64,000 nt of DNA from Octopus vulgaris (lineage: Eukaryota). Each line of letters begins with the position of its first letter. Positions within the stretch are counted from its first letter, which is position 1. Shown piece after piece: positions 3,380-64,000 of this stretch. Under the pieces are notes generated by a model. It saw only the letters and a program-made list of their open reading frames with translations, was not told where the DNA came from and did not search any database. Made by a program: the position numbers and the translations under genes. The DNA lies in assembly GCA_951406725.2 (NCBI GenBank), contig OX597818.1, forward strand, positions 63,488,001-63,552,000. The letters run 5' to 3'.

Positions 3380-3471
3380 CAGTTCTATATTTAAGAGATG
3401 AGGAATTATATACATTGTTTACATTATTTACATTTGACGGATATTTGTCCCATGTAAAATATGTAAATAAT
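3380..3471 (-). mobile_element. 5'-truncated family A tail insertion with 14-bp target-site duplication
   Basis: Matches the 3' end of family A (CTCTTAAATATAGAACTG). Flanked by GGCCATATGTGTTA at 3366-3379 and 3472-3485. Confidence 0.8.
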
Positions 3472-3564: not shown

Positions 3565-4647
3565 TCATTTCGCCATACTTTTTCCAAGCAATCGCTCAAC
3601 ATTCGATGCAATTCCTGACAGTTTCATACACTCCATAATCCTAGAATGCGGGATCATATCGTACCCTTTACGATAGTCGATCCATGACAAGGCTAAGTTA
3701 CTTTTCCTCCTCTTGCAGTCTCTGAGTACAGTTTTGTCTATCAGGAGTTGATCCTTGGTCCCTCTGCTCCTACGCTTGCAACCCTTCTGCTCATGTGGCA
3801 GGACTCCATTTTTTCTAGATGTTCGTACATTGATGCTGAGAGTGTTCCACTCACTAACTTCCACATAAGTGGCAAACAGGATATTGGCCCGTAAATGTCT
3901 ACTGGATTGCCTTTTCGATGTTTTTCAGGCACAGCACTGTCCTACCCAATGTCAACCACACTGGTGTTACTTGGTCGGCATTTAACAAGGTGTTGAGTTG
4001 CGCAGCTATTCGTGTCTGTCATTCACCAAATCTTTTGATCCAGTAGCCTTGAACTGCATCTGGTCCCGGGTCCTTCCAGTTGCTCATTTGTTTGCTGATT
4101 TCCTTCACTTCACTAACTGAAATAACAAGTTCTGCCTGTTTTGTACAGACTACTGTTTGTTTCAGTTCTTGCAACCATTCAGCATCCTTCTTGTGTGCTT
4201 TGTCTTTGCTCCAGTTGTCACTCCAAAACCTTTGACTTTCAATGTTATCTGGTAGTAAATTTTCATCTGTACATCCTCCATTTAATTATTTATAGAACCT
4301 CCTCTGATCTATTCTGAATAACCCATTCTGGTGGTAACACTTCATTCTTTAGTCGTATCTCACCATCTTTGCTTTCTTTGCAACAAAGAGCCGTTTCAGT
4401 TCCTTCATTACTAATTTCAGGCCCCTTCTTTCAATATTATACTTCCTTTACAGCGCCCTGTATTTTTGTTTGCTTTTAAGCTTCCCTTTCTCTTTTCGGT
4501 CTAACACAGAGAATTCCTTCGAGTGCATTCTAACCCTGCCAGGATTCTTCATTTCCACAATGGATCTTTTCTTTTGTCGCTCCCATTACGTTTCTTTTTC
4601 TTGACATTGACAAACACATTTTCATTTTCTTTGTGAACATGTGGGTG

Positions 4648-4718: not shown

Positions 4719-4905
4719 TAACATCCCAAAAATACCTTAGGAATGAGAATCCAGGTTCAAAATTTTCCCAAGCCACCTGACGAAGGCTGGAGGGTGTATC
4801 AGCCGAAACGTTGTGTTAACAACAAACAAGAAGGTCACGTATATCAGTCAGATGTAAATAATGTAAATAAAGTACGTAATTCATCATCTCTTAAATAGAG
4901 AACTG
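4719..4905 (+). mobile_element. Family A tail with hammerhead
   Basis: Aligns with 33987-34162 and ends in ...CTCTTAAATAGAGAACTG. Confidence 0.85.
4772..4817 (+). ncRNA. Minimal type I hammerhead ribozyme motif (family A)
   Basis: gcCAC-CUGACGA-A-GGCUG(GAGGGUGUAU)CAGCC-GAAAC-GUU-GUGuu. Core intact, helix II 5-6 bp, palindromic helix III AACGUU. Confidence 0.75.
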
Positions 4906-8659: not shown

Positions 8660-9330
8660 ACAGATAACTAACCAGTATTTTCTTTTGATTTCACTATCTG
8701 CTAATACGGTTTGCAACCGTTATTTGAACTATTATTAATTTACAACTTCTTCCCAACGTTCAACAAGATTTTCAATACCTCGTTTGTAGAAATCACCTGA
8801 TTTCGCCTCGAAAAATTGATCCAACCAAGCTCTCAATTCTGCATCACGATTGAACGAAACTCCGTCGTGGTTGCATTTGAAAGAGATTGAAAGCGGTGGA
8901 AATCCTTTGGTACCAAATCAGGGGAGTACAGCGGTTATGGCAGCACTTCCCAGATTGAATGGCTTCCTTCGTCATATTGGCGATATGAGGGCGGGCGTTG
9001 TCGTGCAGCAAAACTCTATGCTGCCGATTAGGTATTTTCCCTTGAATAGCTGTGTTGAGTCGTTCCATCTGTTGAACTTAGAGTTCCGCGTTGACCCTTC
9101 GGTACCGTTCAAGCAATTTGTATTGGATAATCCCTTCCCTATCTCACCATACGCACAACATCGTTTTACGCGGATGAAGATCGTGTTTCACGTGCGGTGT
9201 CGCCTGTTTACGGGGGCTAAGCCATTCCTTACGCTGCTTGATATTGATGTACAGACACCATTTTTCGTCGCCAGTAACGATTCGTTGCTTGTGTCCATGT
9301 GTTGAGCGGTGACGAGCAAGCAAACCAGCG
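8660..9330 (-). mobile_element. Mariner (Tc1/mariner DD34D-type) transposase remnant, catalytic half
   Basis: Minus-strand peptides RIVTGDEKWCLY, LLHDNARPHIA and DFYKRGIENLVERWEEVV, with frameshifts and stops. Confidence 0.9.
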
Positions 9331-12547: not shown

Positions 12548-12628
<81 letters not shown>

Positions 12629-12785
12629 TAAAAACGGTAAGATTACAAAACAAAGAAAGAGACCTTAATATTATGTAAATAGAGGAAATTTATCTATAAA
12701 ATAATATGTAACAATTATTCAAGGCCAAGATAAAACTCAGAGGTTTATCTTGGCTATTAAATAATTGTCACATATTATTTTACAG

Positions 12786-12835
<50 letters not shown>

Positions 12836-13110
12836 ATATTTATGTATACATACATATATATATATATATACAAATGTGTGTGTGAGTGCCTTTGTGTTTG
12901 AACCCCCATCACCACTTGACAACCGATGCTGGTGTGTTTACGTCCCCATAATTTAGCAGTTCAGCAAAAAATAGCGATTGAATAAGTACTAGGCTTACAA
13001 AGAATGTCCTAGCATCGTCGATTTCTCCGAGTATAAGCACATTGTGGCGGCGCTCCAGTATGGCCGCAATCATATGAGTGGAACGTGAAGAAGAATAAAG
13101 AAATAAAAGA
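12392..13110 (+). mobile_element. SINE family D with expanded internal microsatellite and nested insertion
   Basis: Head at 12392-12535, tail at 12890-13110. The (TC)(TA)(TATC) middle hosts 12625-12787. Confidence 0.8.
12625..12787 (-). mobile_element. Fold-back copy of hammerhead family F
   Basis: Reverse complement aligns with 63366-63475. Arms 12692-12737 and 12741-12787 are inverted. Confidence 0.75.
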
Positions 13111-13199: not shown

Positions 13200-13531
13200 C
13201 ATTATTTACATTTGACGATATTTATCCTCATTTTGTTTGTTGTGAAAACAACGTTTCGGCCTCGGGGAAATTTCGAGTCTGGGTTCTCACTTCCGAGGTA
13301 TTTTTCGATGTTATTGTTATTATTTTCATTATTATTATTATTGAGTGAGAGAGCAGTTCATGCCATCAAAGTGACACTGGGGTAAAATATACGACGCCCA
13401 ATATACCCATCATGACTACCCGTCTGATAAAGGTACACCAGGCACATGCATCACAACCATATGTGCGCGACATGGTGATCTCATATCAAGATAAACAGCA
13501 CATGACCTTGCAGGTATTATTATTATTATCA

Positions 13532-16588: not shown

Positions 16589-16627
<39 letters not shown>

Positions 16628-17281
16628 ATATGTAGTTAATCCAAACATGAAAACACAAAGAGAAAACAACAACGTGAGGACGTGGTACAAATATAGTATA
16701 GAAGCGCAAGGCACATGCGTTGTTATTCATAAGGAAATCGTTATTGAAAGCAATGCACTAACAACTGAAAGTGAATCGCAGTTGAAGCATAGGTAATATG
16801 AAAGGAGTTAGAACTATAAGCTGTATATTAGATTAGAAAGAAGGAAGCCTGATTTTCTTTCAGGGACAATGTTAAGTAGTATTCGTAATTAATATGTACG
16901 TCGTGTAATGAAAATATGTAACCTAACAGCATTGCTTGTAGTAAACGGTGACCTTTATTGCTGCTGAACAACCGATCCCATCCAATCAGGATTGACAGCA
17001 CGGTTTGTATTATTCATCCTTTCGATTACTGAATACAAAACGACGAACGCTAGACTCCCGATAGGGGGATTTGTTTGAGTCAGCATGTTACCCTTATGCA
17101 ACAATTAGGGGCAGGGTTACTCATTACTAGCTGAATAAACATGAGAAACGTAGAGCAAAGTGCTTTTCTCAAGAACACAATGTACAGCTTGCTTGGGAAT
17201 TGAACTCCCGACCTTGCAATCAGGATTGCAAGGTCACTAGGTAATATAGAAAGAAGATAACAGGAGAGTAATATTAATTAC

Positions 17282-18875: not shown

Positions 18876-19196
<321 letters not shown>

Positions 19197-21362
19197 TATA
19201 TATATATATATATATAGTTATAGATAGATAGATTGATATACATCGATATACATATACAAACACATGGCAAACACACACACCACACACACAGACATACAGG
19301 CACACACATTTATATATAAACACGCACATGCATACAAGTATGTTGGTACATAGTGGAGTGCTTCCCAGTTACTAATAAGTGTAACAATTTCTTTGAATTT
19401 GTTTTCGATACTTAAATTCACTCACGTGGTACCTGTCTGGGAGATGTACAGGAATACATAGGAAAGTAATCTTCTGTATACTATTCATAATGGAATTGAA
19501 AAGAATCAGCTTTAAACTTGTTCCAGTTGTAGGACTGAATGGAATTATAAAATACAGACGTATCTATAATTTTAGAATAAGGTGTTCATAGCTTTACAAG
19601 TGAAACATAAAATCGCAGTTCTCAATGTTTCTGAATGGAACGCTGCTTTTTCAAAGTGGAAAGGTGCGATTTGGCTCACATTCAAGCGAAGGATTATTGA
19701 GTTAAGTTATTTTTCTTCTTTAATCGAAGGAACGATTTTATCGCTCACAGATCCTGAAGTAAAAATAAGTATCAGAACTTGCGATCTCAGGTGATTTAAG
19801 GAAAGAAAATGCGATTTAGATACACCAAGTGACATCACAGAGAAAGCCGTAACGTGGCAACGAAATAAAACGATAACTTTTCGAAATATGTTTCATGCAT
19901 CTGAAGTGAGTACCGTGGTTAAAAAAAAAAAACACCCTTCAAACACAACATGTCTAAATTTACTGTAGCCATTCATTCGCATGTTCACCCTAAAAATTTC
20001 TTATTTCAAAGATGATCACTATTTTCTAGTATTAATGTTAATTAAAAAATGTTCTAAGCAATTCCAATCAATTCACTGAAAGCTTTCATACCAAATAACT
20101 TTCTTAATAATTAGTTTCTCTATTCGCAGCATCTGAATTAACAGAAGTTTTCCATGCATAATGCTATTTTAATCGTATTTTTCTGTTTAAAATATATCTT
20201 CAAAAAGGAGGATTAACTATACCGAAACATATGAATAGTTACCTTTGTACTATTATCATGAAAACAACTAATTACACTACCGAATTTCTATTGTTATTTA
20301 ATTTGTATTACATCCTGTGTGATCTCGTTTACTTTTCCAAGAAAGAAACAAAGAGAATTTAGTTAAGGAACCTTACTCTCAGTACACTTGCAACGAGGCA
20401 CTATCATATTAATTGCGCCCAATCTTCAGTACTCTATATGAGAGAAAAGCGGTTATAGTGTATTAAAACTTATGGAAAACTCAATATTGCATAGAGAACG
20501 CAAAGTTTGTGTTTTGAGAGATTTTTCTGGAAAAAATACTTTCCCTTCAAATGCCATCAAATATGAAAATTAAATTATTTTCATTATTACACAAGAATGA
20601 TGGGAATATAGTCATTTGCAATTTATGCAGACGTGTCACTGCTGCGTGTATTTCCTCGGGGACCTTTGATGTATTATGTTTACACTATGATAACGAAATA
20701 AACAACGGCGGAGAAAATCCATAGAGTTAGACGAACCTTAAATCATTGATGTTATGCGATATTTATTAAGTATATCAATTTTATTCGTTTACTACTTGGG
20801 ATTCATTAGCGGGACTTATCTAAGTTATTTTGTTCCACTAGGGTTTGCAGGACGTTCTCGTCGAGCGCTACATATCTTTCAGGACGATCTTCTAGGCTAT
20901 AGTTTCTGGTTCGGAATATTTGGCTCGGAAAATGTATTACATGTCATAGTTAACTTGAAAATATTAAATTTTATTTCATTGTGGGGGAAACTTTGGTGTA
21001 TGGATACTTACATGCATACACTCACGCATTCTACACACACACATACACACACACACACATACGTATATATGGAGGTATATGTACATTCGTATACACTAGG
21101 AGTCTATGTACGTATGTATATATACATGTATGGGTATCTATGCGTTTTTGTGAGTGGTTGGCTATTTTATATATAGAATTATCGTTTTGATGTCGATTAT
21201 TAGATTAGGTGATTATATGGGATACCAAAATCAAGATATGGCATATCATAAAAAAATGCAATAGCTAACCATTTTACCACTTTAGGAAGACTAGTTGAAA
21301 TTTATGTTCAAAACAAGTATTTCACAGTTAATATCCGGAAATATTATACAGGAAAACGGGTA

Positions 21363-33933: not shown

Positions 33934-34162
33934 AGAAAAGAAGAAGAAGAAGAAGAAGAAGAACAACAACAACAACAACAACAACAACATCGAAAAATAC
34001 CTTAGGGATGAGAACCCAGGTTCGAAATTTTCTCATGACACTTGATGAAGCCGAAACGTTCTGTTAATAACAAACAAGATGAGGACAAATATCCGTCAAA
34101 TGTAAATAGTGTAAATAATGTAAATAATGTACATAATTCATCATCTCTTAAATATAGAACTG
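33746..34162 (+). mobile_element. Complete SINE family A copy
   Basis: tRNA-like head 33751-33827, compound trinucleotide tract, tail 33987-34162. The hammerhead remnant at 34037-34065 has helix II deleted and C3 changed to U. Confidence 0.85.
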
Positions 34163-34326
34163 TAAGGAAAAATATAGCCTTAAACTGTAAATTTCAATGT
34201 CACGGCAGCGAAAGCACAACCAACAGCAGAACGAATGATATTAACAGCATGAACCGTATTCTTGTGGCGATAGAAATTCGCCGTGTGTACCCATTTATTT
34301 TGCTTGCAATATATAAAAAAAAATAG

Positions 34327-37677: not shown

Positions 37678-38295
<618 letters not shown>

Positions 38296-38298
<3 letters not shown>

Positions 38299-38480
38299 AT
38301 GACAACAAAAGAATGAATGAAACATCGATATTATGTGAAATTGAGGAATTTATCAATAAATGTATGTGACAATTAGTTGGTTGTCATAATAAAATTCAGA
38401 GTTTCGGATACCGGAGTTGAAGTCCGATCCAGTACCCGAAACTCTGAGTTTTATTATGACAACCAACTAATTGTCACATA
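38296..38480 (-). mobile_element. Fold-back copy of family F
   Basis: Arms 38363-38415 and 38428-38480 are near-perfect inverted repeats. Sequence aligns with 12640-12740 and 63360-63470. Confidence 0.8.
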
Positions 38481-38555
<75 letters not shown>

Positions 38556-44574: not shown

Positions 44575-44882
44575 TACATACACAGAATACCATATCATGT
44601 ATTTGGTATTTTGCCATTCTCCATAGATTCCCTCCATATCATGTAAAGGGGTTTCGACAATTGTGTCTTGCAGTTTTTAAGTATCATGGCATTGAAACCG
44701 TCAGGCTCCGCAGCCGAGTGCATGGAGAGCTTGTCTATGGCTCTTGCTATGTCTTCTGGGTTGAAATCAATGTCGGATAGGGTAGGTTTAGTATGGTCGA
44801 TATCCTTGAAGAATTTTCCTGGGTCATGGATCTTCATGGTTTTAGATGGCTCACTGAAGACACTTTCATACTGTTGAGCCAA
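44575..44882 (-). mobile_element. Inverted internal piece of a CR1/L2-group LINE
   Basis: QQYESVFS...IDFNPEDIARAIDKLSMHSAAEPDGFNAMILKNCKTQLSKPLYMIWRESMENGKIP, the pre-RT region. Confidence 0.85.
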
Positions 44883-45283
44883 CTTTGGTATCAAAACCTA
44901 CCACTCACTGCGCCACGGAAGACGTTGCCAGCTGCCACCAATCAACAAAAAGGCTGGCCAGGCAGCAAAAACCCTGCGAGAATCAAGTCTGTTGGTTCGA
45001 GGAGCACAACTGTTTAACTCCATTCCGGTACATGTCAGAAATCTATCAGGATGCAGTGTGGAATCATTCAAATTGCAACTGGATAGATACTTAAGCACCA
45101 TTAGAGATGAACCCCATCTCCCAGGATATACACAACGAGCACAAACTGACTCAAACTCGCTCCTACACATGTCAAATTTAAGCAGAGAATACAACCTGGC
45201 AACCACACCAGACTCTGAGGGTGGAGTCTTCGACTTGGCCTGAGCATGGACTCAAACCCAAATGAAATGAAATGAAATGAAAT
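44879..45283 (+). mobile_element. CR1/L2-group LINE 3' end with (AAATG)n tail
   Basis: NFGIKTYHSLRHGRRCQLP...RGAQLFNSIPVHVRNLSGCSVESFKLQLDRYLSTIRDEPHLPGY, then a short UTR and tandem tail. Confidence 0.85.
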
Positions 45284-46620: not shown

Positions 46621-48283
46621 CTACTTTATTTCATGAAAGATTCGCCATTAAGGCGTTACATAGAGGGAACATACAAATACAGACAAACATATAGGGTGTA
46701 GTAGCTTAAAACGTTGGTGATTACAATAAAATATGTATAATATTTACGATATAAGGTTTTAAAAATTTGGTATTATACAGTAGAGCACGGATCCCTGCCA
46801 TCCGGGTAGAACCTTTACTTCTTGATCCGGCCACACTTACCTGGTGCCAGATATACCCAGCTTGCACGCTACAGACTTCCATCTCTTCGCAAACATATCT
46901 CGTAACAGACACCTCTTCTCCAGCCTGATCTTACTACCGAGGTGGTAACTAGCCACTGTTGCACCTATTGAATGAGAAACGATAAGGTTTAATAAAGACC
47001 TAAATAAAATTTCTATTCAAAAACTCGAATATTTAAACAAATATTTTCAGTTATATTATCTAGAGCTTTAACGAATGTGTAATTTTCTTTTAGTGAGCTA
47101 CTGTAAAAAAAAAACCAATGTTATAAATCCTCTGTACCATTTTGTAGCAGATATTTTTTTTCTATTTCTCCAAGAAATTGATCATTAATAAAAGTCATTG
47201 TGAGCGTTATGTGTACGAGATAAGTGACTAGTGAAAAATAAAAATAAATAAATAAATATATAAAACGTATTACAATTTGGCGTTATCTCTGTATTTACAA
47301 AGTTATAATCATATTTACATCATTTCCGCGTCGACAAAATGCTTTACTAATACAAAGATGTTAATCTACCTTTCGCATCACCTCGTCACTTCGTCTGCAG
47401 AAGTGATGCACATTTCAACTTTTTGTCAATGTACACACAGCTTTTATAATTATTTAACTATTTTCCATATTCGCCGCTTGATTTAGCAAAGTTGTTGATG
47501 AGAGAAGCGCGTTCAAAAGAATGATTTAGATCATTGTACAAACAGGACGCTTTCCATCATAAGTTGCATTATATGCGTGTGAGAGAGAAGGAGGGCGAGC
47601 GGGAGAGAGGGTGTATCTCTGGATAAGTAGCTGTGTGCGGAACTGAATGTATGTGAGTGTTTGTGTGCGTTTGGGTACGTGCGTGTGAGAAGGCGTGTAT
47701 GAGTCCCTGTGGTTCTCAAGTAATCGATGTACGTGGCATCGTTCGTTATTTTTCCCTCTACACCTACGTGAATTGTTTTTGAGTATACATTGTCTGGGAG
47801 ACTCTTCTTATAGTAGAGGAAATAGCTAAATTCTTTGGCTGCTATTTCTAAAATTTCGGTGTGTGGTAAAGTAAATTTTTTTGCTGGACCCTAATTATAT
47901 AACGTAATGTTTTAAATATACCGTAAATGGTGTTTTTACATACTGAACACTACTTGGTAAAATTATTAATTAATAATTAATTAATTTTACCCTTATTATT
48001 ATTGACTATATATATATATATATCATCAATCCTTCTTTCCTTTTCTGAGCATCCAATAATACTATATTTGTTCCACGTCCTCGCGTTGTTGTGTTTTCTC
48101 TTTGTGTCTTCATGCTTGGATTAACTTTATATATATATATATATATATATACATATGCGTATACATATACACCTTCTTTCACACTATTATGGATCATCCT
48201 GCTCTGTCCCCTGTTATACACTCCACGCACTGCTACGCAGCTGTAGCTGCCGATGCACCTCCAAAATTCTTTCTCGCTTTCTT

Positions 48284-48329
<46 letters not shown>

Positions 48330-49492
48330 CCAGTTGAGAGGAATTCGTCTAGCAAGTTACTTTGTGACCCTGTTGCTGTCAGTGCCAGGTAAAAGGCAGA
48401 AGAGACGGTTGCTCTTGCTACATAAAAGTCACCCTCTACACTTTGTAAAATGGTTGGTGTCGGGGAAAATTATGCCAAAACAGAGTTTCGAAACCGGTGT
48501 ACCTTTGCGGTTTGCCTGCTACAGCTAAAGTGCTACTGTTGCTGCTGCTGCTGCTGCTGATGATGATGATGATGTATGAGAAAGAGATAAAGATGGAAAA
48601 ATGCAGTGATTAATTTTATAATAATTTATCTTTATATGAGCCAGTATGTATTGATACTATCATAATTATAAAATGTTGACATTGTTTTTAATCACAATGG
48701 AAAATTTCTGATATGAGTGTCCATTTTGTGTTACATGAATTGAAACATGCTTAAAGAACTTCTGGATGCTCCTCCAGGTAACATGGATTCCTAATCAATC
48801 TCCATTATATAGGTGTTCATTTTGAAATACGAATTCTTCTAAATAAAATCGTTAGATATACGACATGTCAAAAATATTAGACGTATTGCTTCGGTTTCAA
48901 ATGTTAAACGGTGTAAATCTGCCTTTTATTCTCCCCGATCAATAAGATATATACCAATGAACTAATCTGGCTCAATATAACTGTCTCTTCATCCTCACAA
49001 TCATTGATATTTTATAGATTCTTTAGAGATCATTCTAGTAAAACCGTTTAGAATATTCCAAATTTCTCACAAAATAGGATCTATATATCAAAAAATTGAT
49101 ATATAAGATTATCGATTATGTATTTTAAATTACATTAAAATATATTTTCTAACCATTTCTTGTCGGTGAATATGCACGAGTGAGATTATATATGCAGCAG
49201 TTTCAAAATGCAAGCTTAAATCATTGCACTGTTATCAATAGCACGTATAATATAATTTATATTCTTCCTATCAATATCACCATAACGGATAACCGTTTGA
49301 TTGAATTAATCAAGAACGCCATGTGACTGATAGCTTGGCATGCAGCTAGCGGATACGTTCTTTGTTCGTAACGAAATATTCATTCGGTGACGCTCTTACG
49401 GTAAGTGTGCCAAAAGATTTTACACTGCATTCGTTTTCGTATTTAGATGGGAAAGTTTTAGCATAAATATATATATACATGCATATATATAC

Positions 49493-49611
<119 letters not shown>

Positions 49612-49752
49612 ATCCAAACAAGAAAGCATATACATAAATATATATATGTATATATATGTGTATGTGTGTAGATGTGCGTCTGTGTTTGTGCATGAGTATG
49701 CTTTTGTGTAAAGATAAACAGCTAAATGAAAGCTACTATACACACACATATA

Positions 49753-49835
<83 letters not shown>

Positions 49836-52800
49836 GTATGTATATATATGTATATATATATATGTATATATATGTATATATATATATGTATAGATACATA
49901 TATATGTATATTTATATATATGCATATATATATGTATACATGTATGTATAAATGTGTGTGTGTTGATGTGCGTCTGTGTGTGTATGTGTATGTGTTTCTG
50001 TAAAGATGGACAGCTAAATGAAATCTGTTATACACACACGTATATTTATACGTATGTATATATACATATATATGCACACACATATGGTGTCCAGTGTGTG
50101 TATATTTATACTCGTGTGTAATGAGAAGAGGGGAAAGGCGGCAATGAAGGCAAATGCATAGAAAGAGTCTGATGTAATCAATATCCCTGAAGTGGTTCCT
50201 TTATGGCACATTGGTTAAGGACGTCTTTAAAATATATTGCATTTAACTAGCTTCGTTTCAACAACTGATCCTCTCTTATGTCTCTCGTATAACTATGTGT
50301 ATAATATAATACTTTCGGAACGAATTGCATATTCGCATTAAATGTTCTCATACAAAATCGACCAAATAAAAGACAATTCCTCTATGAGCTTGTTTGTAGT
50401 TATGTAGGCGAAGAGAAAAGAATACAGAGAATGTGTTTGAAATGGAAACCTCTTCTTAGAAGTTTATCATTAAATGCTATTACATTGGTAGTTTTATTCT
50501 GATTAATAAGATCATAATGATATACTTGAATCAGCATGACTGGAATCTCTTTGCCACAGGCACGATTCTTTTCATAGCGAGCAGTTTATATTTCTATTTA
50601 TATGTACAAATCATTCCTTTATCGAAAATATTGTCTTCGTAAGTTTCTTTCAACATGTCATTACATTAAGACATTAATCTAAAGTGATTTAATTGAAGCA
50701 ATATACATAATAGTAGTCGTTTCTTTTCATCATTCATCTACCTTTTCAGAATCGCTCTGTTTTCCAGTGACACAGCTGATAAAATATCGATTTATTTCAC
50801 AAGATGCAAGTTCACTGAAGCAAATGTGTGTAGTATTGAATAGGGAGATTTCCCGCATTGGGGTTTTGACAGAGTATAAGATGTCACGAAACCGTATATA
50901 TTATGTTATCAATTTTACGCACCCTCTAGGATTTCAAGCAGTGCACAACTCTGAAAAATATTAGATGGTGAGGCATTTGAAGATATACGTTGTAGAACAA
51001 TGTGAAAAATCAAAATAATTTTACTAATTGCGTTAAACCTAATTTTAATTTTTGGGAGAAATATTTTAAACCATCAATCGTCAGTATATTATGTCTCAAC
51101 CTCATTATAAGGAACGAAAACTGAGTGGTATACCTTACACAATATCTAATTCTACACTCTTAAACTTTTCGACTCAAGAATGAGTTTTCGTTCGAGAGAA
51201 AAGAAATTCCTACAAGGTATTGAGTAGTTTTCAAAACTAAGATGAGAAAAACGTTTGAATACGATTGAGAATAAGAAATATCATTGTACACATTTGTGTA
51301 CGTTTGTATACGTGCATACGGAAAAATTATCATACTTTAAGAAAACAACGTGTAGGAAATGAGTATGTGTTTGTGTTTTTCAAGAAAGTAGCAGCAACAT
51401 CAGATAATTTGAAAATAATCAAAATCGCTGCTATCCCTCCATCATAAACGATGAGTCGAAAAACTGACATCAAGACTTTCAGTGGTTAACATCAACTTTG
51501 TAAATGATATATATAATTTTCTCTGTGCAAATTTATATTTTATCGTTTAGTATGAAGCTTCATAATTACAGGGAATATAAGATCAAAGAAAGTGGAATAT
51601 TGCTTTTCTAAATTACCGGAGTGTTTTAATTGAAAACTTAGAAGATGTTATTTTTTTTAGAAACTCAACGTCGCTACGAATGGTGCAGAGCTAAAGAAGA
51701 GTATTTAAAATCACTGATTATAATCATATTGGCAAGCGTCACTCAATTTTGAACTTATTCACCATTTTTATCTGTCAATGACATATCTAATTGCAAACCA
51801 GATTAAACTATTCCAGACGAGTCACACATTTAATGAGGTTTTAAGGTGGTTCTGTAGAGTGTGGGTTGCACTTTAGCCTTATGTTTCCAGTTTCAATCTT
51901 AATACGTAATTGATTGCTTTTTAACCAACAACAATTGTCTTTATTAGAAATTAGATAAAATCCCCGTTGTCTCCTTGATGCAAATACCTATAGATAAGTC
52001 TATATTTGTGTACATACACATATTGTGCACGTATATATGTGTACATATGTAGTGCACATTGCTTATGTGCATCTGCATGATTTTACTTCTAAGTGTACAT
52101 ACATATGTACCCATAACTGCTCGTATGTATATGCATTTATTCATAATCTGAATTCAAGAAGGTATTAAATATTTTCAGAAATCCATCAACAGCTTTTAAA
52201 CATGGTTTCCTATTTACTTGCAGCTTTTCTTGTTTTGTGAAGTGCATTTTCTATAAGCTGTCGCGTGGGCTGCTAGATACAAGCAGTCATTCTAAACTTA
52301 CATATGTAAATCAAAAGATAGAGTTTAGACACACATTTTAATCATACTGCAGTTAAATTAATAAGTTCTTTTCTGCCTCTCTTACGTTTCGCCATTTGTT
52401 AGTTTACATACTTTCTCTTTAAAGTGCATTATGATGTTATAAACAATGGCCTCTTCTGGGAATATTTAACTGCTATTTTTTCCCGTTTCTCTCGAATATA
52501 TATCTGTCAATAGTAAAGATCTACACTTAGAGCTGTAATATTTATAACGTTTATTGTTACAGTCGGTCATTTAAATATGTATGGTTTACCCATATCCGTT
52601 AAACACTACACACAGTGGGTCATGTAGTATATGTTCTACATCTCTGCTGTCCTACTGGAGGAATAGTGACAGCTGACACTATGCTTGAATGGGCAGCCTG
52701 TAGATAAGACACAATCCTGTATTTGTGGCCTTGTGCCGGCGGTGTTACGACGCTAATGTTATTGTTGCCATTATCGCTGCTCTTTGTGTTGTACCTACTG

Positions 52801-53141
52801 CATGTATAGCTGATTCCGTTGCTACTTAAGCAATCGCTGCAGTCGCAAGTGTCGCTTAAACCCTCAGCATCATACACTATATCTTCGGTGTTGCAACGAT
52901 CTCCAATAGGCATTTGTTCTTAACCTTGAACCAACATCTCGCCTGTGCACGTAGTTTAGAGATAATATTGATGCGATACCTGTCCAGCCATATATGTATG
53001 CATATATATATTATCTTCAAATATATATATATATGTATGTATGTATGCATGTATGTATATATATATATTATTTTCAAATATATATGCATATGTAAATATA
53101 TATATATGTATGTATGTATGCATTTATGTATACATATATAT

Positions 53142-53718
53142 GTCAGGTCACTCTCGAGTGCTACTGGTAACATGTAACCCAGTACAACCTGTTGCATGGT
53201 CGGGTCGTCGGCGACTAAACCGGCAACCCCACCAAACTTGCTTTGTGAGGAGAGTGTTTATTGGACATCCTGCGGGATGAAAAAGAAAACCCGCCAAAGG
53301 GCGGAGGAACTCTTGAGAGTCAACGGCCATCCAATAAATGTGTATTTATTTATTTTCTCTTAAGGCTTGAGGCTGCATCATGCGCGGGGACATAGAAATA
53401 ATCAGACTGAATACTCGATCGCGCAGTTAAACCATTGTGAGTGAAGGACTCCTAGCCTTTGTTAGGGCATCCTTCTAGGAGAAAGTAACTCAGGTAACTG
53501 GGATAACTCCGAAATAAAACCTGCGGCTCAGTGGTTACCGATGATGTTGACTTGTTCTTCTTTTCGGATTATGACTGCTGTTGCTTATTGAGTGGGATTG
53601 ACTCAGTGCACAGCCTCTCCTCACTTTAAAAACAGTCTTCTTGCACAGGCATTGCACGATAACAACATTGATTAAGCTTCGCGCAATGGCCATACTCGAT
53701 AACGAGGGGGCAGCCATC

Positions 53719-53720
<2 letters not shown>
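53142..53720. mobile_element. Structured, GC-richer non-coding element between (TA)n tracts, possibly RTE-derived
   Basis: Contains TTAGGGCATCCTTCTAGGAGAAAGTAACTC, resembling a motif I recall from RTE 5' UTRs. Several strong hairpins. Confidence 0.45.
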
Positions 53721-53802
<82 letters not shown>

Positions 53803-55068
53803 CATATATACATATACATACACACACACCACATATATATATATATATGAGTAAACAAATAGGGAGAATACACACACAGACACACATACAGACATACGCA
53901 CATGGAATTGATCCGGGGTTATAGTAGGTGGAACTTCCTCACGGTACAACGCAGAGGGTTTCCATGTGGAGCCACGTTGTTACAATTTGAGCTTTTTCTA
54001 GTGTATTGCACCATTATATATGCGGTATGTCGCTCTTATCAATTCTTCTAATACGAAAAAAATATATCCCTGAAATAATAATTTATACTTGGGTTGTTTT
54101 CACAAGGTTGACCAAACCCGTCGCCTACTTCATTGAATTGGCAGTGTAGCTTGATGATAATATGCATGCACATTTTTCATTTTGGGTACGTTGTGAGGTT
54201 TTGTATCCTACGTGATCAAGCTGATAATACATTCTGGGAACATCTTTCGCGAAACTTAAAAGATTTTATTATTTGCCTGTGAACTTGGCTCTTTTGTATA
54301 TTACGGTGTGAGATTATGTTATCGAATAGATGTGATCTTAAAGTTAAAGATTTTTTCAGTCGATTCTAGATCTCTGCTTCCAAGTTGGTTTTCAAGAAGC
54401 AGTATTTATATCAAATCATTGTTGAAATGCAAATTGATACCAAATACGTTCCGAGTGTTAACATCGATGACTCTAGATACCGTCTGGCACCAACAGTATT
54501 TACCACATTTGGGTATGTGTAAATATCAGGCGAACTTAAAGATTGATAACAGATAGTTTTGTTATACTGTTGTACATTATTTGCTGGTTTGATATTGTGT
54601 AGCACAAGCGATTATATGTCACAGACAAGCAATTGGTTTGGCTTCTTGATGAATCGAAAGCACAGTGCGGATAACATGAAAGACAACAAAATATCAATAT
54701 CCACCGTTGAAATTTGTGTGAAATTTCTGACTCGCCTGGAGTGTTATTTTCAGTGACTTTAAGAATCGGAGTCAGGAAAGGACGTGTCCCAGAACGTTAT
54801 TGAGAAGTATAATAAAACATTAAATCACATAGCCATTCCATACGACGGTAATAGCTCAGGAGGATCGCATAAGTCATCTGTACACAGATGTTAACGGTTT
54901 TGAGGGAGTTATTGCAAATTACGTCAGGAAGAGATTCGTTTAGAAAAGCAAACGATTCATGTTCGCAGTGTACGTATAGTATGTCATTATTTCAATAGAC
55001 GAATGTCCCATGTAGTAAAACATTGGCTTAAGACAATCTTTTACTGATTGCTTCGAATTATATTGAGA

Positions 55069-55446
55069 CTAGCAGTATCGCCCGGCGTTGCTCGGGTTGG
55101 TTTCGACTCTTTAGAATTGGAATTTTTCAAAAATAGAAATTCTGTTATTCTCTTTAAGTGAAAACTTTTCTGGTTGAAATACACCGACAAATGGCGACAA
55201 AGCAGTCAAAAAATCGTAAAAAATAGGGATTTTCATAGAAAAGAGTACCTTTATGATGTAAATAATTTTTGTTTTTAACATGGTTTGATTTGAATGTTTT
55301 CTTCTACGGAAGAAAGTGCAAGCCTTCTTCTATCATACTCTCAATTTTGGTCAACTTGCTCAGCAGGGTCTCGAAGGAGATAGTGTTAGTTGAAGGCTAC
55401 AAAAAACTGCCATACACAGACAACTTCAGCTTTATATAGAGAGAGA
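55069..55446 (-). mobile_element. Non-autonomous Helitron-type element
   Basis: Minus strand starts a/TCTCTCTCTATATAAAG and ends CCCGAGCAACGCCGGG (hairpin) CGATACTGCTAG/t. Confidence 0.82.
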
Positions 55447-56480
55447 TGTAACGAATAGTAGCGTAGAATTTTATGCAATGTTCTAAATAAACTTACGCAA
55501 CATTCTCATATTATTGGTTTCATTCACTGAATTACAAAACATAACAATTTGTCTATAATGCCATAATGGTATCTAGAAATTATTTCACTGCGCAGATTAT
55601 ATTTAGAATAAACTAACTTTTCTCTCAGACTCGCTGAGAAATGATACAAATATGCACATATATGTATATGTATATGCATATACGTGTGTATGTTCTCATG
55701 ATGAATGGTAGAACTGTGAAACTAATGATGCAAAATTATTATTGAGACATTTCTTACCTGAAATCTGAAAACATCTCAGTGTTTGCAACAGGATTTAAGC
55801 TCACAAAGAGAGAAACTATGGAATAAACTAATCGTTAGGTAACAGTATTGAAATTACAAAGAATTAATTTCTAACAACAATAGTTTAGAGAATATATATA
55901 CACATTGATGCATATATACGTTAAATTATATGTATATACCTCGTTCAGAGATATATTATTGCTTATATATATATAAATATGAGTATTTATGAATAACTAT
56001 ATACGCGTGTGGATCTTGTAAGTTCATCAATTAGTTTATCTGCTTATGCTTATTTAAGATTTAATTCAAATAAAAATATTCTTTATTGTTATTATAAATT
56101 ATCTCATAGTGTCTACATGAAATTAAATGACTGATCGGAAAAATTAACACGGAATGTTTTAGTAATTAAGTGCAATAGCAATTAAAATTATATTCATTCC
56201 CAAACTTATTAGGTTTCTCAGAAAATTCCTGTTTCGCTTTAATCAGAGATGTATGGAAACTAAATGTTTTAATTTATATGGAATTTGGAGAATTCCTTTC
56301 TAGCCTCGACATAGAATATAATAGTAATGATCCTGAAATCAGAAAATTTACATTCAAAACGAAACTTTTGCAAACATAAATCTGTAAAGATAGTTGTAGG
56401 ATTGAAACCATAGACATTATGTAGCTTGAGGTATAACGAGTTACATGGGATAAATTATATTATATGGCATTATTACCTTT

Positions 56481-56790
56481 AGATGCGCAATGGCGCATTG
56501 GTTAGGGCAGCGGACTCACGGTCGCAAGATCGTGTTTTCGATTCCCAGACTAGGTATTGTGTGCGTTTATTGAGCGAAAACATTTAAAGCTCCACGAGGA
56601 TCCGGCAAGTAGTGGTGGCACTCCTGTTGTACTCTTTCGCCCCAACTTTCTCTCGCTCTTTCTTCCTGTTTCTTGAGTAACGCTGTGATGGACTGGCGTC
56701 GAGTCAAGCTAGGGCGGAACATACACCATAGAAACCGGGAAACCGGGCACATGAGCCTGGCTAGGTTTGAGAGGGGCGCATAAATAAAAA
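56481..56790 (+). mobile_element. SINE family C, tail type 3
   Basis: Same head and body as 30351, then diverges into GATGGACTGGCGTC...ATAGAAACCGGGAAACCGG. Confidence 0.8.
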
Positions 56791-56824
56791 AAAATATTAC
56801 CTTTAATATTCAGGCTACAATCTA

Positions 56825-57030
56825 GAAGAATCGTTAGTATGACGAGTGAAAGTTTAAGCGTCTTTTTGCCAGCCTTTACGTTATGAGTTCAAATTCCGCT
56901 GAGGCCGAGTTTGCCTTTCATCGTTCTGGGGTTGAAATAATGAGTATCAACTAAGCGTTGAGATCGTTGTAACCGAATTGAACCCTCCCTCGAAATTCCT
57001 AGACCTCTGGCACAATTTGAAACCAACATT
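56825..57030 (+). mobile_element. Degenerate CORE-type SINE family B
   Basis: GAGTTCAAATTCCGCTGAGGCCGAGTTTGCCTTTCATC core. Confidence 0.7.
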
Positions 57031-57160
57031 ACCTTTAACATACGTTTAAAACTTTGCACTATATATATGATGAATTGAACCAATATATATGTGTCTATGT
57101 TGATATATATACCTATATTTAGACACACACACACACATATATGTACATGTATATACTTAC

Positions 57161-57209
<49 letters not shown>

Positions 57210-58971
57210 AATCACCAAGTAAGGGACCTATATACATTTATTCCACACAAAAATTATAGTCGTTAATCATCATTATATCAGTTACTACCGTCTTAACACA
57301 CAAACAAATTATCCCAGAAAATCTCATATACAAAAATGAGGCGGTAATAGCGTAGGGTGACATAATTCTGAACTTATGCATGATAAATGAGATGTGATTT
57401 GAGGCCTAGATGCGACAAAAAAGAGCATCGGTGTAGTTTGTTATCATTTATTCCTGGTTTAGTGGGCCACATATGGACAAGCGTTCGAGAGAAACATATA
57501 CGCACCTTTGAATGCAATTACTGAAAAACTAACTCATATTTCCTTGATAGGAATTATTTTGCTGACGTCAAGGCAAAACGCATCTTGTGATGACACATAA
57601 TGGTAAATCACTTCTCTCAGTTTATAAAGAAAATTAATAAATCATAACTCGTTTTTTTGTTTTTTTTTGAAAAAGTACAAGGGAAACAGAAAAATACATT
57701 AGTTAAGCGTCAGCTGTAAGCAAATACTTTTATGAAATGTGTAATTGTCTGCCTTCTTGTTCTTCCTATTAAACTTAATCTGTTTTTTAATGTTGCCAGC
57801 TATCATTCTTTATTGTAACCAATATTGTGGAAATAAATCTTTTATTGAGTGTCCAGTTGGAATATCCAGAATCGTTCCTTATATATTGCAGATGTAAACA
57901 TGAGTTTTTAAAGAGAACGAATATATAAGAATAGGCGGAAATTAGTTTAGTTCCCGAGTTCAGACTAGTGATCTAATTAACGGAGGCTTCCTATTTGAAG
58001 TATTTGTATAGGTGGACTGACACTACGAGGATAATTTCACAAACCTTTAAAGAAACTCACAATTTTTTCAATTAGCATAACAACCTGGTAATACTAACGT
58101 GTCAAATTTATTTGTCCATGGGGTGTACATGAATAAGGAGCAACGGTAAGCAAACATAGCAGAGATTCTGTTCCTCTTGTCAAATTCTAAAATGTAAATC
58201 AACAATTATGTGACAGAATTAAAATTAGTCACGAATGTCCTCACGACATGATTTAATTTATCGTTTATTTATTCAATAATTTGATTCGCCTACAGAAAAC
58301 ACCACAGGGGCTAGCTTTTATTAGAATATTTCTGATTATGAAAACACCCATTCCACTGTAATAAAGTTGTTTTTATCGAACTTAATTTGCGATGATAATA
58401 TATTTCAATATCAAGATCTATTTTTCCATGACATTTGCCGAACCTGTAAGTGGACAGTCTATAGTTTTTTAAATAAAACGTTATTGAAATAAAATAACGA
58501 TCTGTTGTGTCATACACATATTTGATCTTTGAAGCATATATGAATGCTCAGCAATTATAGTTAGTTATTCTGCAAGCAAAATGGAGCCTATTTCCACATC
58601 ATGAATTAATTGAGCCTAGCATGGTTAATAGCCGTAATTGTCAGCATACGGTAAGTAATGTAAGGAGAAGCAGAGAATGTCACTTGCACTAAAATTACAT
58701 TCAGCCAAGAAGAACGTAAAAAAAAATACTTAATTTCATTGCCTTTAAAAAGTAATATCAATTTGTGAGCGAACAATCCAAATTCAGTCTTGGACAATCT
58801 TTCTATATACAGTGATTTAGCCTATTCTAAATGCTAACATAAACTAGCATTCAAACAAGAACATTTTAAATTGGTCCTGTAGAAAAGAAAACCATTTATA
58901 TTTTTTTATATTTGCGTTCTTCATATATTCAATCTGGCATTCTTAGTACAGCATTTAGATTGGTATTCAAA

Positions 58972-59036
<65 letters not shown>

Positions 59037-59354
59037 AAGCGGCTTTTTAAATGCTAAATCTTAGTTAAAATAATGTATATACCGAAGCAGTTGCTTTAAA
59101 TCGAAAATTTTAGATAAAGTTTTACATTTGGAGGCCTTAGTAAACGATACACATATTGTTGCAGCTTCAGTCTCATCTCTAAGGATGAGATCCCTGTTCA
59201 CAACTGTCAATTCCCATTCGAAGTGAAATCACTGGTCATTTATTATGCATGAAAATATGATCAACTACTGGCGAAGCGTGGAAGTGTCAATTCTCGACAC
59301 TACTGATGCTGTTCAAAAATACCAGTGTCAATGAATCTTGCAACTAATGTCGGT

Positions 59355-59840
59355 AGACCTCGCACAACCTCTAGGGATACGGACACTTATTTCATAAGCT
59401 ACAATAAGAATTCCGGTTATACATTTCTTTCAAACGGAACAACATTTTTGAAACCATGAATAATACAAGGTACAGTTCGCAGAATTAGAATTGAAAAGGA
59501 ATAAAACAGGCGGCAGCAAGTGAGGTTAGTGCACCTTCGCACACCTACTCATATATACACACATATATGTATGTGTATGCAAGATTTATATATATATATT
59601 CATGCATAAATCTTGCATACACATACATATATGTGTGTATATATGAGTAGGTGTGCGAAGGTGCACTAACCTCACTTGCTGCCGCCTGTTTTATTCCTTT
59701 TCAATTCTAATTCTGCGAACTGTACCTTGTATTATTCATGGTTTCAAAAATGTTATTCCGTTTGAAAGAAATGTATAACCGGAATTCTTATTGTAGCTTA
59801 TGAAATAAGTGTCCGTATCCCTAGAGGTTGTGCGAGGTCT
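59355..59840. repeat. 235-bp near-perfect inverted duplication with 16-bp spacer
   Basis: 59355-59589 is the reverse complement of 59606-59840 with one mismatch seen. Confidence 0.95.
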
Positions 59841-61514
59841 TGTGGGTGTGTGTGAGTGGGGTGGGTGTTTGTATTTGTTATGGGTGTGTGTTTTACGTGT
59901 GTGTATTTGTGTGTGAATGTATAGGTTAAAGGGATTGCTATATAAGTATGTTATAGGGTTTAGCAAAGGGAGGTTTTATCATTTATGTTTTTATGAGTTT
60001 TAATTTATCATGGTAATTTTATTAAAGAATCCATTCATAATTTTTTTTAAATAATGTTGGTTTACCGCGTGAATATAGTTTTTAATTCCATTTATTCTAT
60101 TTCTCCATTCATAATTTTAAGTGACGTTTGCTTCCATAGCGCGTATTCTTTTTATACATAAGTTATGTTCTTATGGTAACGTAATTTTGGTTTGATGTTT
60201 TTTAACGGCTTAGAATTTAATTTCACTTCATAATTTGAAACTGACTTGAAAGTATGTATATTATTTCTCCTTATGTCATGTTGTTATTTTTGATATTCTG
60301 GTTACTTACGATGTATTTTATATATAGTATTATTTGTAATAATGTTGTTTTTCTTTGGAGTGTTTATGTATGTGGGATTGTGTGTGAGTGTGTGCGTATT
60401 TTGGTTGTGTAATTTATTTATCTGTATGAGTGTGGGTGTGTTAATATTGTTGTATATATCGAGTTTGGTGAGTATGTATATGTATATGGTGTGTGTTTAC
60501 GTATGTATATTTGTGTGTGAATGTGTTTATGGGTTTGCTATATAGGTTTGGGGATGTATGTGTTTATTTGTCTGTGTGGGGTTGAGTGGGTTTTTGGAGT
60601 ATATGTTGAGGTTTATATGTATGTATAGGTATGTGTGAGTGAGGTGGGTATTTGTATATGTCGTGGGTGTGTGGTTTACGTGTGTGTATTTGTGTGTGAA
60701 TGTTTAGGTTAGGGGGATTGCTATATAGGTATGTTATAGAGTTTAGTAAAGGGAGATTTTATCATTATATGTTTTTATGAGTTTTGGTTTGTCATGGTAG
60801 TTTTATTAAGGAATTCGTAGTAGTTTGTGTCTATTTGCGATGTCTGTTGTTTTATTGCATGTTTTCATTCATAATTTTTAAGTAATGTTCGTTTTACCAA
60901 GTGAATATAATTTTTAATTCCATTTATTCCATTTCTCCATTCATAATTTTAAATGATGTCCGTTTCTAGAGCGGGAATGTGGGTTGTATGTGTGTGTGAG
61001 GGAGTATGAATAAGTATTGTGTTGAAGTATTTGGCTATTTTATTTATTTATCGTTGCCTAGACGTTTTTATGTGTATGTATAGGGATATATATATAGGTG
61101 TGTGATTTAGTGTATGTATTTAGATATGGTTATATATAATTAGTTATATGTGTATGGGTATATATATAGTTTATTTTTTGTTTTGTTTTATATTTTATAT
61201 TTTATATTTTATATTTTATATTTAATTGTTGAAAGGTTTATTTTAGTTTATATATTGTTTATATATTGATTATATATGGATTATATATAGGTTATATATA
61301 GATTATATATTTATATTTTTTCATTAATACTTTAATTATTTTAAAATTATTATTTTTATATTTTAAAATATTGATATTTTAGATTGGAAGTCCACCTGAA
61401 GATTGTCGATTAGGACAAGAAACAATTGTAGTGGCGGTTTTTTTGACTTTTTATTAAAATTTTATGTATTGATTAAGTTTTTCCTTGTTTGTTTTGCAAA
61501 ATAGTGGTTTTGTC

Positions 61515-61518
<4 letters not shown>
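59841..61518 (+). mobile_element. G/T-skewed non-coding element ending in a hammerhead and (TA)n, probably Penelope-like-derived
   Basis: Abrupt strand-skew onset at 59841. Internal diverged direct repeat. Hammerhead about 85 bp before (TA)n. Confidence 0.55.
61392..61434 (+). ncRNA. Type I hammerhead ribozyme motif, fully canonical core
   Basis: CCAC-CUGAAGA-UUGUC(GAUUAG)GACAA-GAAAC-AAUU-GUA-GUGG. All helices Watson-Crick. Helix III is the palindrome ACAAUUGU. Confidence 0.88.
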
Positions 61519-61567
<49 letters not shown>

Positions 61568-62178
61568 TATGTAAGTAGTTGAATGAATTATCTTAGTATG
61601 GATAATTCGGTTAACCGATACCCGGGTAGCAAATTCACGTCAGCAAAACAAGGTTGGAGGGGAGAGATCTAAGAATAGGTAGGTGATAGGGTGCAAGTCA
61701 TATGAATGGTGATTTGTTGTTTGCTTTTGTGATTGAGTGCCTATGTGTGTGTATGTATATAACTGCATTCGTGTCTATGTGTGTGTATGTGTGTGCGTGA
61801 TTGTGTGTGTGGTTGGGTAGATGCCAAAAACAAACAGTGGTGGAGTGACAGGTTTGTGTCTGTGTGTTTGATTGTGCTTACGATAGAGAGAGGGAAAGAG
61901 AGAGAAAGAGAGAGGAGGGCGAGGTAGAGAGACAAAGGTAAAACATTTATTTATATATATATGTATGTATGTATTTATGTATACTTCAAAATGTAACCAC
62001 GCGTGTATCGTTCACGATTTTCTTCCTCCGTCTTCCCTTCTTTTGGTCTTTCTTCATTCATTCCTTTCCTGAACGTCTGATAATACATTACCTCTACCAT
62101 GTCCTCGTATCGATGTTTTTTTCTTGTGTGTCCTTCTTTGTTTGGATTCAATATATATATATACATACATACATACAC

Positions 62179-62209
<31 letters not shown>

Positions 62210-62224
62210 TACATACATACATAC

Positions 62225-62273
<49 letters not shown>

Positions 62274-62436
62274 CATTCATGTATCTATATATGTGTGTGG
62301 GAGGCATGCCAGACACACATGTAACGTAACCTACTCGCAGCCTCTTTCAATGGGATTTTATATACAAACTTTACTGTTTATAATTATGAATTTACTATTT
62401 CATGTTAACATTTTGAATATTACATTTACGACCATC

Positions 62437-62510
62437 ATTTCAAATAGAAATTGTTCTGCTTGTATTTCGAGTAGAAAGTGTTCTGCTTGCATTTCAAATA
62501 CAAATTCTGC
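62437..62510. repeat. 27-bp tandem repeat (about 3 copies) in a degenerate CATTTCAAATACA-type array
   Basis: ATTTCAAATAGAAATTGTTCTGCTTG-like units. Confidence 0.65.
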
Positions 62511-62757
62511 TGTTTACATTCAGAATACAGTTTCATAGTTATATTGTAAATACAAAATTCTATGATCAGGTTCTAAATACATTTTAAACTGTCATTTTAA
62601 ATACAGCGTTAACATTTCAAAGTCAGTATTCTAAACACAATAGCTGACATTTTAATACAGATTGAGTTAAATACACATCCACAACATGAACATTTAGAAG
62701 AATTGTAAAGGAATCCAGATTTCGTTCGTTTTTGGATGTTACATAACTCTAACATAT

Positions 62758-62801
<44 letters not shown>

Positions 62802-62804
<3 letters not shown>

Positions 62805-63002
62805 TAATCCAAACAAGAAAACACAAAAAAAACACAACAACGCGAGGACGTGGAACAAATATAGTATTATTGGACGCTCAGGAAAGAAGGGGAGAAGGAG
62901 GGTTTAAAGTTTCGAGCGGAGCTCTTCGTCGGAAACATAGGAGAAGGAAAGATCCCGAGAAGGGAAGACAGAGGAAAAAAATCGCCAACGGCACACACGA
63001 GG

Positions 63003-63005
<3 letters not shown>
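62802..63005 (-). mobile_element. Family G copy with altered hammerhead (62902-62936)
   Basis: Aligns to 18983-19196. Core reads CCGACGA...GAAACUUU. Confidence 0.85.
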
Positions 63006-63040
<35 letters not shown>

Positions 63041-63291
63041 GTATATAATATGTGTGGTTTAGTTCGCTGACGAATTAAACCAATACGTGCACTGTATAAG
63101 TGCTATAATTGGTTATCCGTTACCTTCCGAGTTCTCAGCTTAGGCTGGAGCAAGTGTTCCGGAGCATACCTTTCTGTCAGCAGTTATAAATTAAAGAAAA
63201 TGTTGACCTCGGATACTCATCCTGCCTTCGTTTTGTTTTCCATTTTCATTTATATATATATATAGATATATGTGTGTGTGTGTGTGTGTAT

Positions 63292-63475
63292 GTGTGACAA
63301 TTAATCGGTTGCCATAATTGCCTCGATAACTGAAGATGCCGGACCAGGTTTCTGTTCCGACATCCGAAACTCGGAGTCTTATTATGGCAACCGAATAATT
63401 GTCACATATTATATTACAGATAAATTGTTTTATTTACGTAATATCTAGGTCTATTTCCTCATTTTGTTGTCTTAA
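63292..63475 (+). mobile_element. Family F element with hammerhead (63325-63383)
   Basis: gAUAA-CUGAAGA-UGcCGGA...UCCGaCA-UCC-GAAACUC-G-GAGUC-UUAUu, enclosed by about 26-bp inverted repeats. Confidence 0.7.
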
Positions 63476-63485
63476 TATATAATTT

Positions 63486-63516
<31 letters not shown>

Positions 63517-63549
63517 CTTTATTTAAAGCAGCAGAAAATTCAACAAAAC

Positions 63550-63587
63550 CTGTTACTCTGAGTTTCCCGTTGCCGTTCGTCGGACAG
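63550..63587 (-). ncRNA. Minimal hammerhead motif, U4C variant, in a (TA)n-flanked element (63517-63702)
   Basis: CUGU-CCGACGA-A-CG(GCAA)CG-G-GAAACUC-A-GAGUA-ACAG. Confidence 0.6.
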
Positions 63588-63699
63588 TTTTTGCTAGAAT
63601 GGAACCGATATGTGTATTCTTTAAATAAAGCATATTACTCTACCACTGGTATTTGTGTACTCTATTTTCCACCTTGTTTCACATTTATGTGTTTACTCT

Positions 63700-63735
<36 letters not shown>

Positions 63736-64000
63736 GCATTCTAAAATACTAAATTATTTATACTGCCACAAGTAATTGAAAAATCTATCTTCAGCATTTT
63801 CATTTGATAACATTCAATTACAGAGGGAACCTCGGCTTTTCGTGTAACATTCTACCCCAATATGCCAATATCAACATTACGTGCGAGCTCGGGTAGTATC
63901 ACGGAAAGAGCAAGGAACAACACAATCGAAAGTCGTCAATGTCAGCGATCCCAGTCTAGGGAATGGTTACGTGAAGACTTTGTTTTTTATCTTCCTTATA

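Follow-up and report, generated by a model that had tools for sequence, protein, structure and literature searches.

A minimal type I hammerhead at 61392-61434 (+) of the window (the whole stretch of Octopus vulgaris DNA that was analysed, 64 kb in length) is probably the orphaned 3' end, or pseudo-LTR, of a truncated or non-autonomous Penelope-like element (PLE) inserted into (TA)n, and its predicted cleavage, after A61430, would require two copies joined via ACAAUUGU. The anatomy of the motif can be read directly, its cut site lies 88-89 nt from the (TA)n, and neither a reverse transcriptase (RT) nor a second copy was found in the window. Rather than being surprising, the hammerhead is of the same kind as the published PLE minimal hammerhead (min-HHR), and is a further example of a class published in 2014 that resembles the min-HHR minus two consensus traits.

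Motif anatomy and control tests

The motif was delimited by sequence reading and a descriptor scan, and comprises, in order, CCAC, CUGAAGA, UUGUC, GAUUAG, GACAA, GAAA, CAAUUG, UA and GUGG. Helix I has four Watson-Crick pairs (CCAC, 61392-61395, with GUGG, 61431-61434) and helix II has five, again all Watson-Crick (UUGUC, 61403-61407, with GACAA, 61414-61418, around the loop GAUUAG). The core CUGAnGA...GAAA...UH is present in type I order, with C3-A9 as CUGAAGA at 61396-61402 (G5 at 61398) and G12-A15.1 as GAAA at 61419-61422. Helix III is formed by the perfect 8-nt palindrome ACAAUUGU (61422-61429), which gives 2 bp and a 4-nt loop in a monomer and 8 bp between two molecules. Helix II starts directly after A9 with no extra base, a shifted register failing at the second pair, and its closing pair at 10.1-11.1 is U61403-A61418, not the usual G-C. 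In older mutational work, a U-A closing pair of helix II slows hammerhead cleavage. The triplet at the predicted cut site is GUA (U16.1 at 61429, A17 at 61430, cut after A61430), which is described as a natural hammerhead triplet that is somewhat slower (PMC1636495). The core nucleotides, the three Watson-Crick helices and the predicted cut position after GUA are all as first annotated. It is also the cleanest Watson-Crick hammerhead in the window; the G10.1-C11.1 pair that is retained at 4777 and 19114 is missing from it.

The motif is far above chance. It is the sole match of the strict descriptor scan (both strands, 64 kb), and none of 300 block-wise dinucleotide shuffles (both strands) contained a motif with a helix I of at least 4 bp and a helix II of at least 5 bp; a looser descriptor has three real matches in the window, as against matches in 6 of the 300 shuffles. 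Among metagenome stretches sharing the core and palindrome letters, helices I and II also form in 2 of 56 (one sequence, found in loci L006 and L035), and 1 of 120 viral stretches from the looser scan passes the helix test, weakly. Matches to these letters thus rarely form helices I and II, and so the presence of the letters does not by itself entail the helices. Exact pattern scans for the hammerhead found no metagenome contig and no viral contig, and the 56 metagenome and 120 viral stretches from the looser scans included no homolog by blastn. No homologous copy of this family was found in the window or in the metagenome and viral scans. The interval 59300-61520 is partly present in 20 of 24 public-run rows among the matches listed (nine studies, four organism labels), by shares of sampled words, which are given no weight as evidence; two rows hold half or more of the sampled words, and no RNA run is among the matches listed.

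Predicted folds of the monomer and the dimer

Folds were predicted with nearest-neighbour energies without tertiary contacts. For the bare 43-mer as a monomer, helices I and II have predicted pair probabilities of 0.7-0.9 and helix III of only 0.04, and the complete monomer hammerhead is predicted to occupy about 2% of the ensemble, or about 0 when the U-rich 3' flank is included. For two 43-mers, the best predicted fold is a double hammerhead (-22.2 kcal/mol) with a rough predicted Kd of tens of micromolar, and the intermolecular ACAAUUGU duplex is predicted at -6.4 kcal/mol. The palindrome and this predicted dimer minimum agree with the original proposal that helix III can form either a 2-bp hairpin or an 8-bp intermolecular duplex.

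The predicted double hammerhead depends on where the RNA ends. It is the predicted dimer minimum in five of seven tested RNAs, all five ending at or before 61440, and is no longer the minimum in the two that end at 61445 and 61450; similarly, the predicted probability of helix I in the monomer is below 0.2 for RNA ends from 61442 on. Both losses in the longer RNAs are attributed to predicted pairing of the U-rich tail with the core, the first 20 nt of the tail being predicted to form a competing rod. The transcript originally suggested for a cleavage assay, 61370-61460, is predicted to adopt a rod that buries the core, and therefore a negative result with it would say little. With this predicted misfolding, and with G10.1-C11.1 kept at 4777 and 19114 and missing here, the description of the hammerhead as the most testable ribozyme in the window is not supported. 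Cleavage might be detectable if the RNA is trimmed and both RNA and Mg2+ are supplied at high concentration, although this is a tentative expectation, and meaningful cleavage in the native context is very improbable. In the cell, the single copy is most likely passive, since it has no partner in cis and carries a competing tail.

Tail, (TA)n spacing and the C-poor stretch

The predicted cut site is followed by a U-rich tail of 88-89 nt (61431-61519, +), the putative 3' end of the pseudo-LTR, which contains a weak 7-bp hairpin (61496-61513), and then by a (TA)n run (61520-61561), the putative insertion target. A comparable spacing of 88-104 nt before a TA run is seen in four of the five hammerhead-like motifs examined (three of four families), where the 63330 motif (+) counts by virtue of a short TA run at 96 nt and lies 112 nt from (TA)4+. 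The motifs at 19114 and 62932 (-) belong to one family, are 89% alike and have a TA run 104 nt downstream, and the 4777 motif (+), of the fourth family, has no TA run within 250 nt. As background, 13% of non-run positions lie at most 90 nt upstream of a (TA) run, and somewhat more do so for 112 nt. Upstream, a TA run lies at 65-82 nt in the other hammerhead units and a (TA)4+ run lies 95 nt from the hammerhead at 61392-61434, which would therefore be a solo unit of about 220 nt; the other hammerhead repeats of the window are units of about 200-230 nt between (TA)n runs. A common tail of the 61396 and 63330 families was considered and rejected, their likeness being no better than that of shuffles (231/500).

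Several of these repeats have relatives in the window. An abundant family of about 220 nt, flanked by (TA)n runs and carrying a minimal hammerhead, is represented at 18960-19200 (-) and 62780-63008 (-), with partial copies at 48030-48156, 16602-16699 and 61980-62175; its hammerhead is intact at 19114-19088, where the extra base and G10.1-C11.1 are also retained, and has an altered core at 62932. Directly upstream of the hammerhead-like repeat at 63290-63480 (+) lies its own tail in inverted copy; its relatives, at 38290-38490 and 12613-12860, fold back around a centre in or close to the hammerhead, as PLE inverted junctions do. A further minimal hammerhead at 4777-4812 (+) has the extra base, G10.1-C11.1 and a palindromic ACGU; it has relatives at 33986-34168, 13200-13313 and 3377-3444, and the copy at 34050 is without most of helix II.

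The hammerhead was initially placed at the 3' end of a 1.7-kb non-coding element. The stretch itself is real: 59841-61517 is a compositional unit with 1-10% C on the plus strand, its GC skew of 0.61 exceeds that of any other part of the window (minimum -0.22), and the G/T-rich part upstream of the ribozyme (59841-61391, +) is non-coding. On either strand of the stretch, no Pfam family was found, and there is no stop depletion, with stop counts at most about 1.6 SD from shuffles in all six frames; of four segments, three have a 3-base periodicity of 0.5-0.8 and the other has one of 2.5. Protein homologs were found neither for one minus-strand frame of the stretch body nor for the hammerhead region. 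An internal duplication of the stretch pairs 59845-60141 with 60628-60973, at 76% in a gapped comparison, and 60461-60550 is a third copy, only partial. That the stretch and the hammerhead form one element is not supported, as the other units measure about 200-230 nt and a (TA)4+ run lies 95 nt upstream.

Immediately to the left, a near-perfect fold-back of 486 nt (59355-59840) consists of two 235-nt arms with one mismatch and a 16-nt TA-rich centre, and stops exactly where the C-poor stretch starts. Its composition resembles the left flank and not the C-poor stretch, and its arms carry no hammerhead and no match to the hammerhead tail, so that it does not duplicate the hammerhead end. It may be a very recent duplication, a junction product or an assembly artefact. 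The exact abutment at 59840, the single mismatch in 235 nt, the TA-rich centre and the span of the C-poor strand bias from 59841 to the TA run would all be consistent with 59355-61519 being one recent 1.7-kb non-autonomous PLE insertion, whose 5' junction copied 235 nt of flank as the fold-back, and both inverted-junction palindromes and host-DNA capture are described for Penelope (PMC3846280). However, the inverted piece in published cases usually copies the 3' part of the element itself, which the arms do not resemble; the G-rich skew goes on beyond the TA run (61572-62000, skew 0.52); the fold-back may be an assembly artefact; and neither a second copy nor an empty site came to light. A single insertion of this kind is therefore unlikely. 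Less likely again is a recently mobile, protein-free 1.7-kb Penelope derivative with a G/T-rich duplicated body, in which a competing fold with the U-rich tail would hold the hammerhead off until the parent protein binds and the 235-nt fold-back at the 5' junction would be the host flank, copied by self-priming.

Relation to Penelope-like elements and other origins

Cervera and De la Pena (2014, PMC4209133) described minimal hammerheads in the pseudo-LTRs of metazoan PLEs, including a variant with a small palindromic helix III in Drosophila, rotifers, shrimp and mosquitoes. As in these min-HHRs, the motif at 61392-61434 combines type I topology and a full unpaired core with a 4-bp helix I (published range 4-5 bp), no defined loop 1, a closed helix II and a palindromic 15.2-16.2/loop 3, is a dispersed single motif, and has predicted dimer-only activity; published cleavage of PLE min-HHRs is low even as dimers (PMC4209133; PMC6765202). 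Recurring traits of the class are G10.1-C11.1 and an extra base after A9, the former being a consensus trait that lies outside the search descriptor of PMC4209133. The octopus motif differs in having U10.1-A11.1, no extra base between 9 and 10.1 and a GUA triplet, in its helix II of 5 bp compared with 7-8 bp in the Schistosoma min-HHR, and in the lack of a PLE ORF at its locus.

A second comparison is offered by PAc, a Poseidon element of Anolis carolinensis, for which insertion ends are reported to coincide with sites of RT initiation, 111-118 bp into the ORF, with hammerhead cleavage at +26 (PMC11167929). Subtraction of these figures places the PAc cut site about 85-92 nt from the insertion end, similar to the 88-89 nt between the octopus cut site and its putative 3' end, and the AT-rich target of PAc resembles the putative target here. 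The PAc ribozyme needs the protein of the element and is dispensable for insertion in vitro, according to the same paper, and its RNA remains uncut without protein, which fits the misfold predicted for 61392-61434. Unlike the PAc ORF, which opens where stem II starts, the octopus locus reads AUU there and has no ORF after it. PLEs are also reported to undergo 5' truncation, to lie beside inverted copies, to carry hammerheads close to their 3' ends and to target microsatellites or (TA)n (PMC8557442).

An analogue was found in an unrelated metagenome locus, L006, where a minimal hammerhead whose helix III is likewise ACAAUUGU lies on the same strand as, and upstream of, an 812-aa ORF with a weak RVT_1 match (E 3.7e-06, below the cut-off of Pfam). 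The RT motifs of this ORF are presumably of PLE type, and no match to it was found among solved structures. There is no blastn match between L006 and the window, and L006 is thus an analogue and not a homolog. Within L006 (137-4041, -), and also in L035, the hammerhead lies upstream of both a 441-aa ORF and the 812-aa RT ORF, which is without a GIY-YIG motif, and the locus resembles an endonuclease-deficient PLE from a microbial eukaryote.

The octopus hammerhead had also been linked to a possible RT/GIY-YIG element, and no such link was found in the 64-kb window by Pfam, RT profile or tblastn. Six-frame Pfam searches of 59301-61402, 61381-64000 and 47301-59302 identified no families; when the whole window was searched in six frames with a profile built from 80 of the L006 RT's 150 nearest relatives, no match had an E value better than 4.8, and tblastn of the L006 ORF gave no match there; these L006-derived RT probes carry no GIY-YIG domain, which was sought by Pfam only. 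An ORF with RT and GIY-YIG was found neither at the locus nor in the window by these searches (Pfam for both domains, the profile and tblastn for RT), and therefore the locus is at most a PLE fragment or a non-autonomous derivative. The window has a GC content of 26-40% per 2 kb and many (TA)n and (CA)n runs, including 158 runs of (TA)4+, and contains decayed LINE and mariner pieces. Among these are a decayed mariner-type transposase at 8820-9305 (-; Pfam Transposase_1, E 2.9e-16) and two fragments resembling non-LTR retrotransposon ORFs, one at 3565-3924 (-) with a weak RVT_1 match and one at 44595-45243 with none.

Overall, a PLE origin is well favoured. A motif far above chance with a predicted double-hammerhead dimer minimum argues for it, and analogy points the same way: the short helix I, palindromic helix III and dispersed single occurrence are min-HHR traits (PMC4209133), the cut site-to-TA spacing is akin to that of the Anolis PLE (PMC11167929), (TA)n targeting and adjacent inverted copies, the latter also seen in the inverted tail just upstream in the 63330 family, are PLE traits (PMC8557442), and L006 pairs the same ACAAUUGU helix III with an RT ORF. 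Against it stand the lack of an RT/GIY-YIG remnant adjoining the hammerhead or elsewhere in the window, the absence of both G10.1-C11.1 and the extra base after A9, the lack of the AUG with which stem II opens in the Anolis element, the failure to find a homologous copy in the window or in the metagenome and viral scans, the status of L006 as an analogue only, the 4777 family with no TA run nearby, and a likeness to the 63330 tail that shuffles equal. Judging from published PLEs, tandem pseudo-LTRs on one transcript, or the protein of the element, would have joined two ribozyme halves in the parent PLE, and the paired copies or bound protein would have let the ribozyme cut the precursor RNA. 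Reverse transcription would start about 85-105 nt behind the cut site, as published PLEs suggest, and this start site would fix where the genomic copy ends.

The locus might instead be a non-LTR retrozyme monomer or a SINE-like hammerhead repeat that spreads via small circular RNAs and is not a PLE end. Its non-coding repeat, type I hammerhead and low-GC DNA resemble animal retrozymes (PMC7229834; bioRxiv 10.64898/2026.07.22.740005), there is no PLE ORF at the locus, solo retrozyme monomers are reported to be common (bioRxiv 10.64898/2026.07.22.740005), and the hammerhead units of the window measure about 200-230 nt. Non-LTR retrozymes, however, are described as having canonical type I hammerheads in tandem repeats of 150-450 bp (PMC7229834), whereas 61392-61434 is a single minimal motif with a helix I of only 4 bp and no second copy in 64 kb, which makes this origin rather improbable. 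Since retrozymes are reported to derive from PLE pseudo-LTRs (bioRxiv 10.64898/2026.07.22.740005), the two origins partly merge. A ribozyme domesticated by the host to process one of its transcripts at this locus would account for the intact unpaired core, but is highly improbable, as Pfam finds no host gene in 47301-64000, the predicted monomer fold is about 0 in context, and one intact copy is expected where several such motifs occur in the repeats of the window. A chance match in AT-rich sequence would be in keeping with the Rfam searches (no hammerhead at the gathering score in the 64-kb window or at E<=10 in 59000-62000, and only miRNA-type sub-threshold matches, to the fold-back and TA runs), with the unremarkable folding z-score of the hammerhead region (-0.6 to +0.1) and with the off-consensus 10.1-11.1 pair, but can practically be dismissed because none of the 300 shuffles attains the motif, the descriptor matches together with a palindromic helix III, and the 3' spacing is the same as in other hammerhead repeats of the window.

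As a probable PLE end, this single locus carries little weight alone, given that, in 2014, such motifs were already reported to number in the thousands per animal genome (PMC4209133). The repeat annotation of O. vulgaris lists 31 recently active Penelope-like families, with no mention of ribozymes in its main text (PMC13282606), and the giant squid genome paper reports 235 Hammerhead_1 loci (PMC6962438). A literature search on hammerheads in octopus and cephalopods found no description of octopus PLE minimal hammerheads, although the supplement of PMC4209133 may list mollusc motifs. Octopus short repeats filed as unclassified SINEs may partly be hammerhead-bearing pseudo-LTRs. Additionally, since the RNA is predicted to switch between a double hammerhead and a rod that is inactive, it would offer an easy way to test why protein is required by PLE hammerheads, a question that PMC11167929 leaves open.
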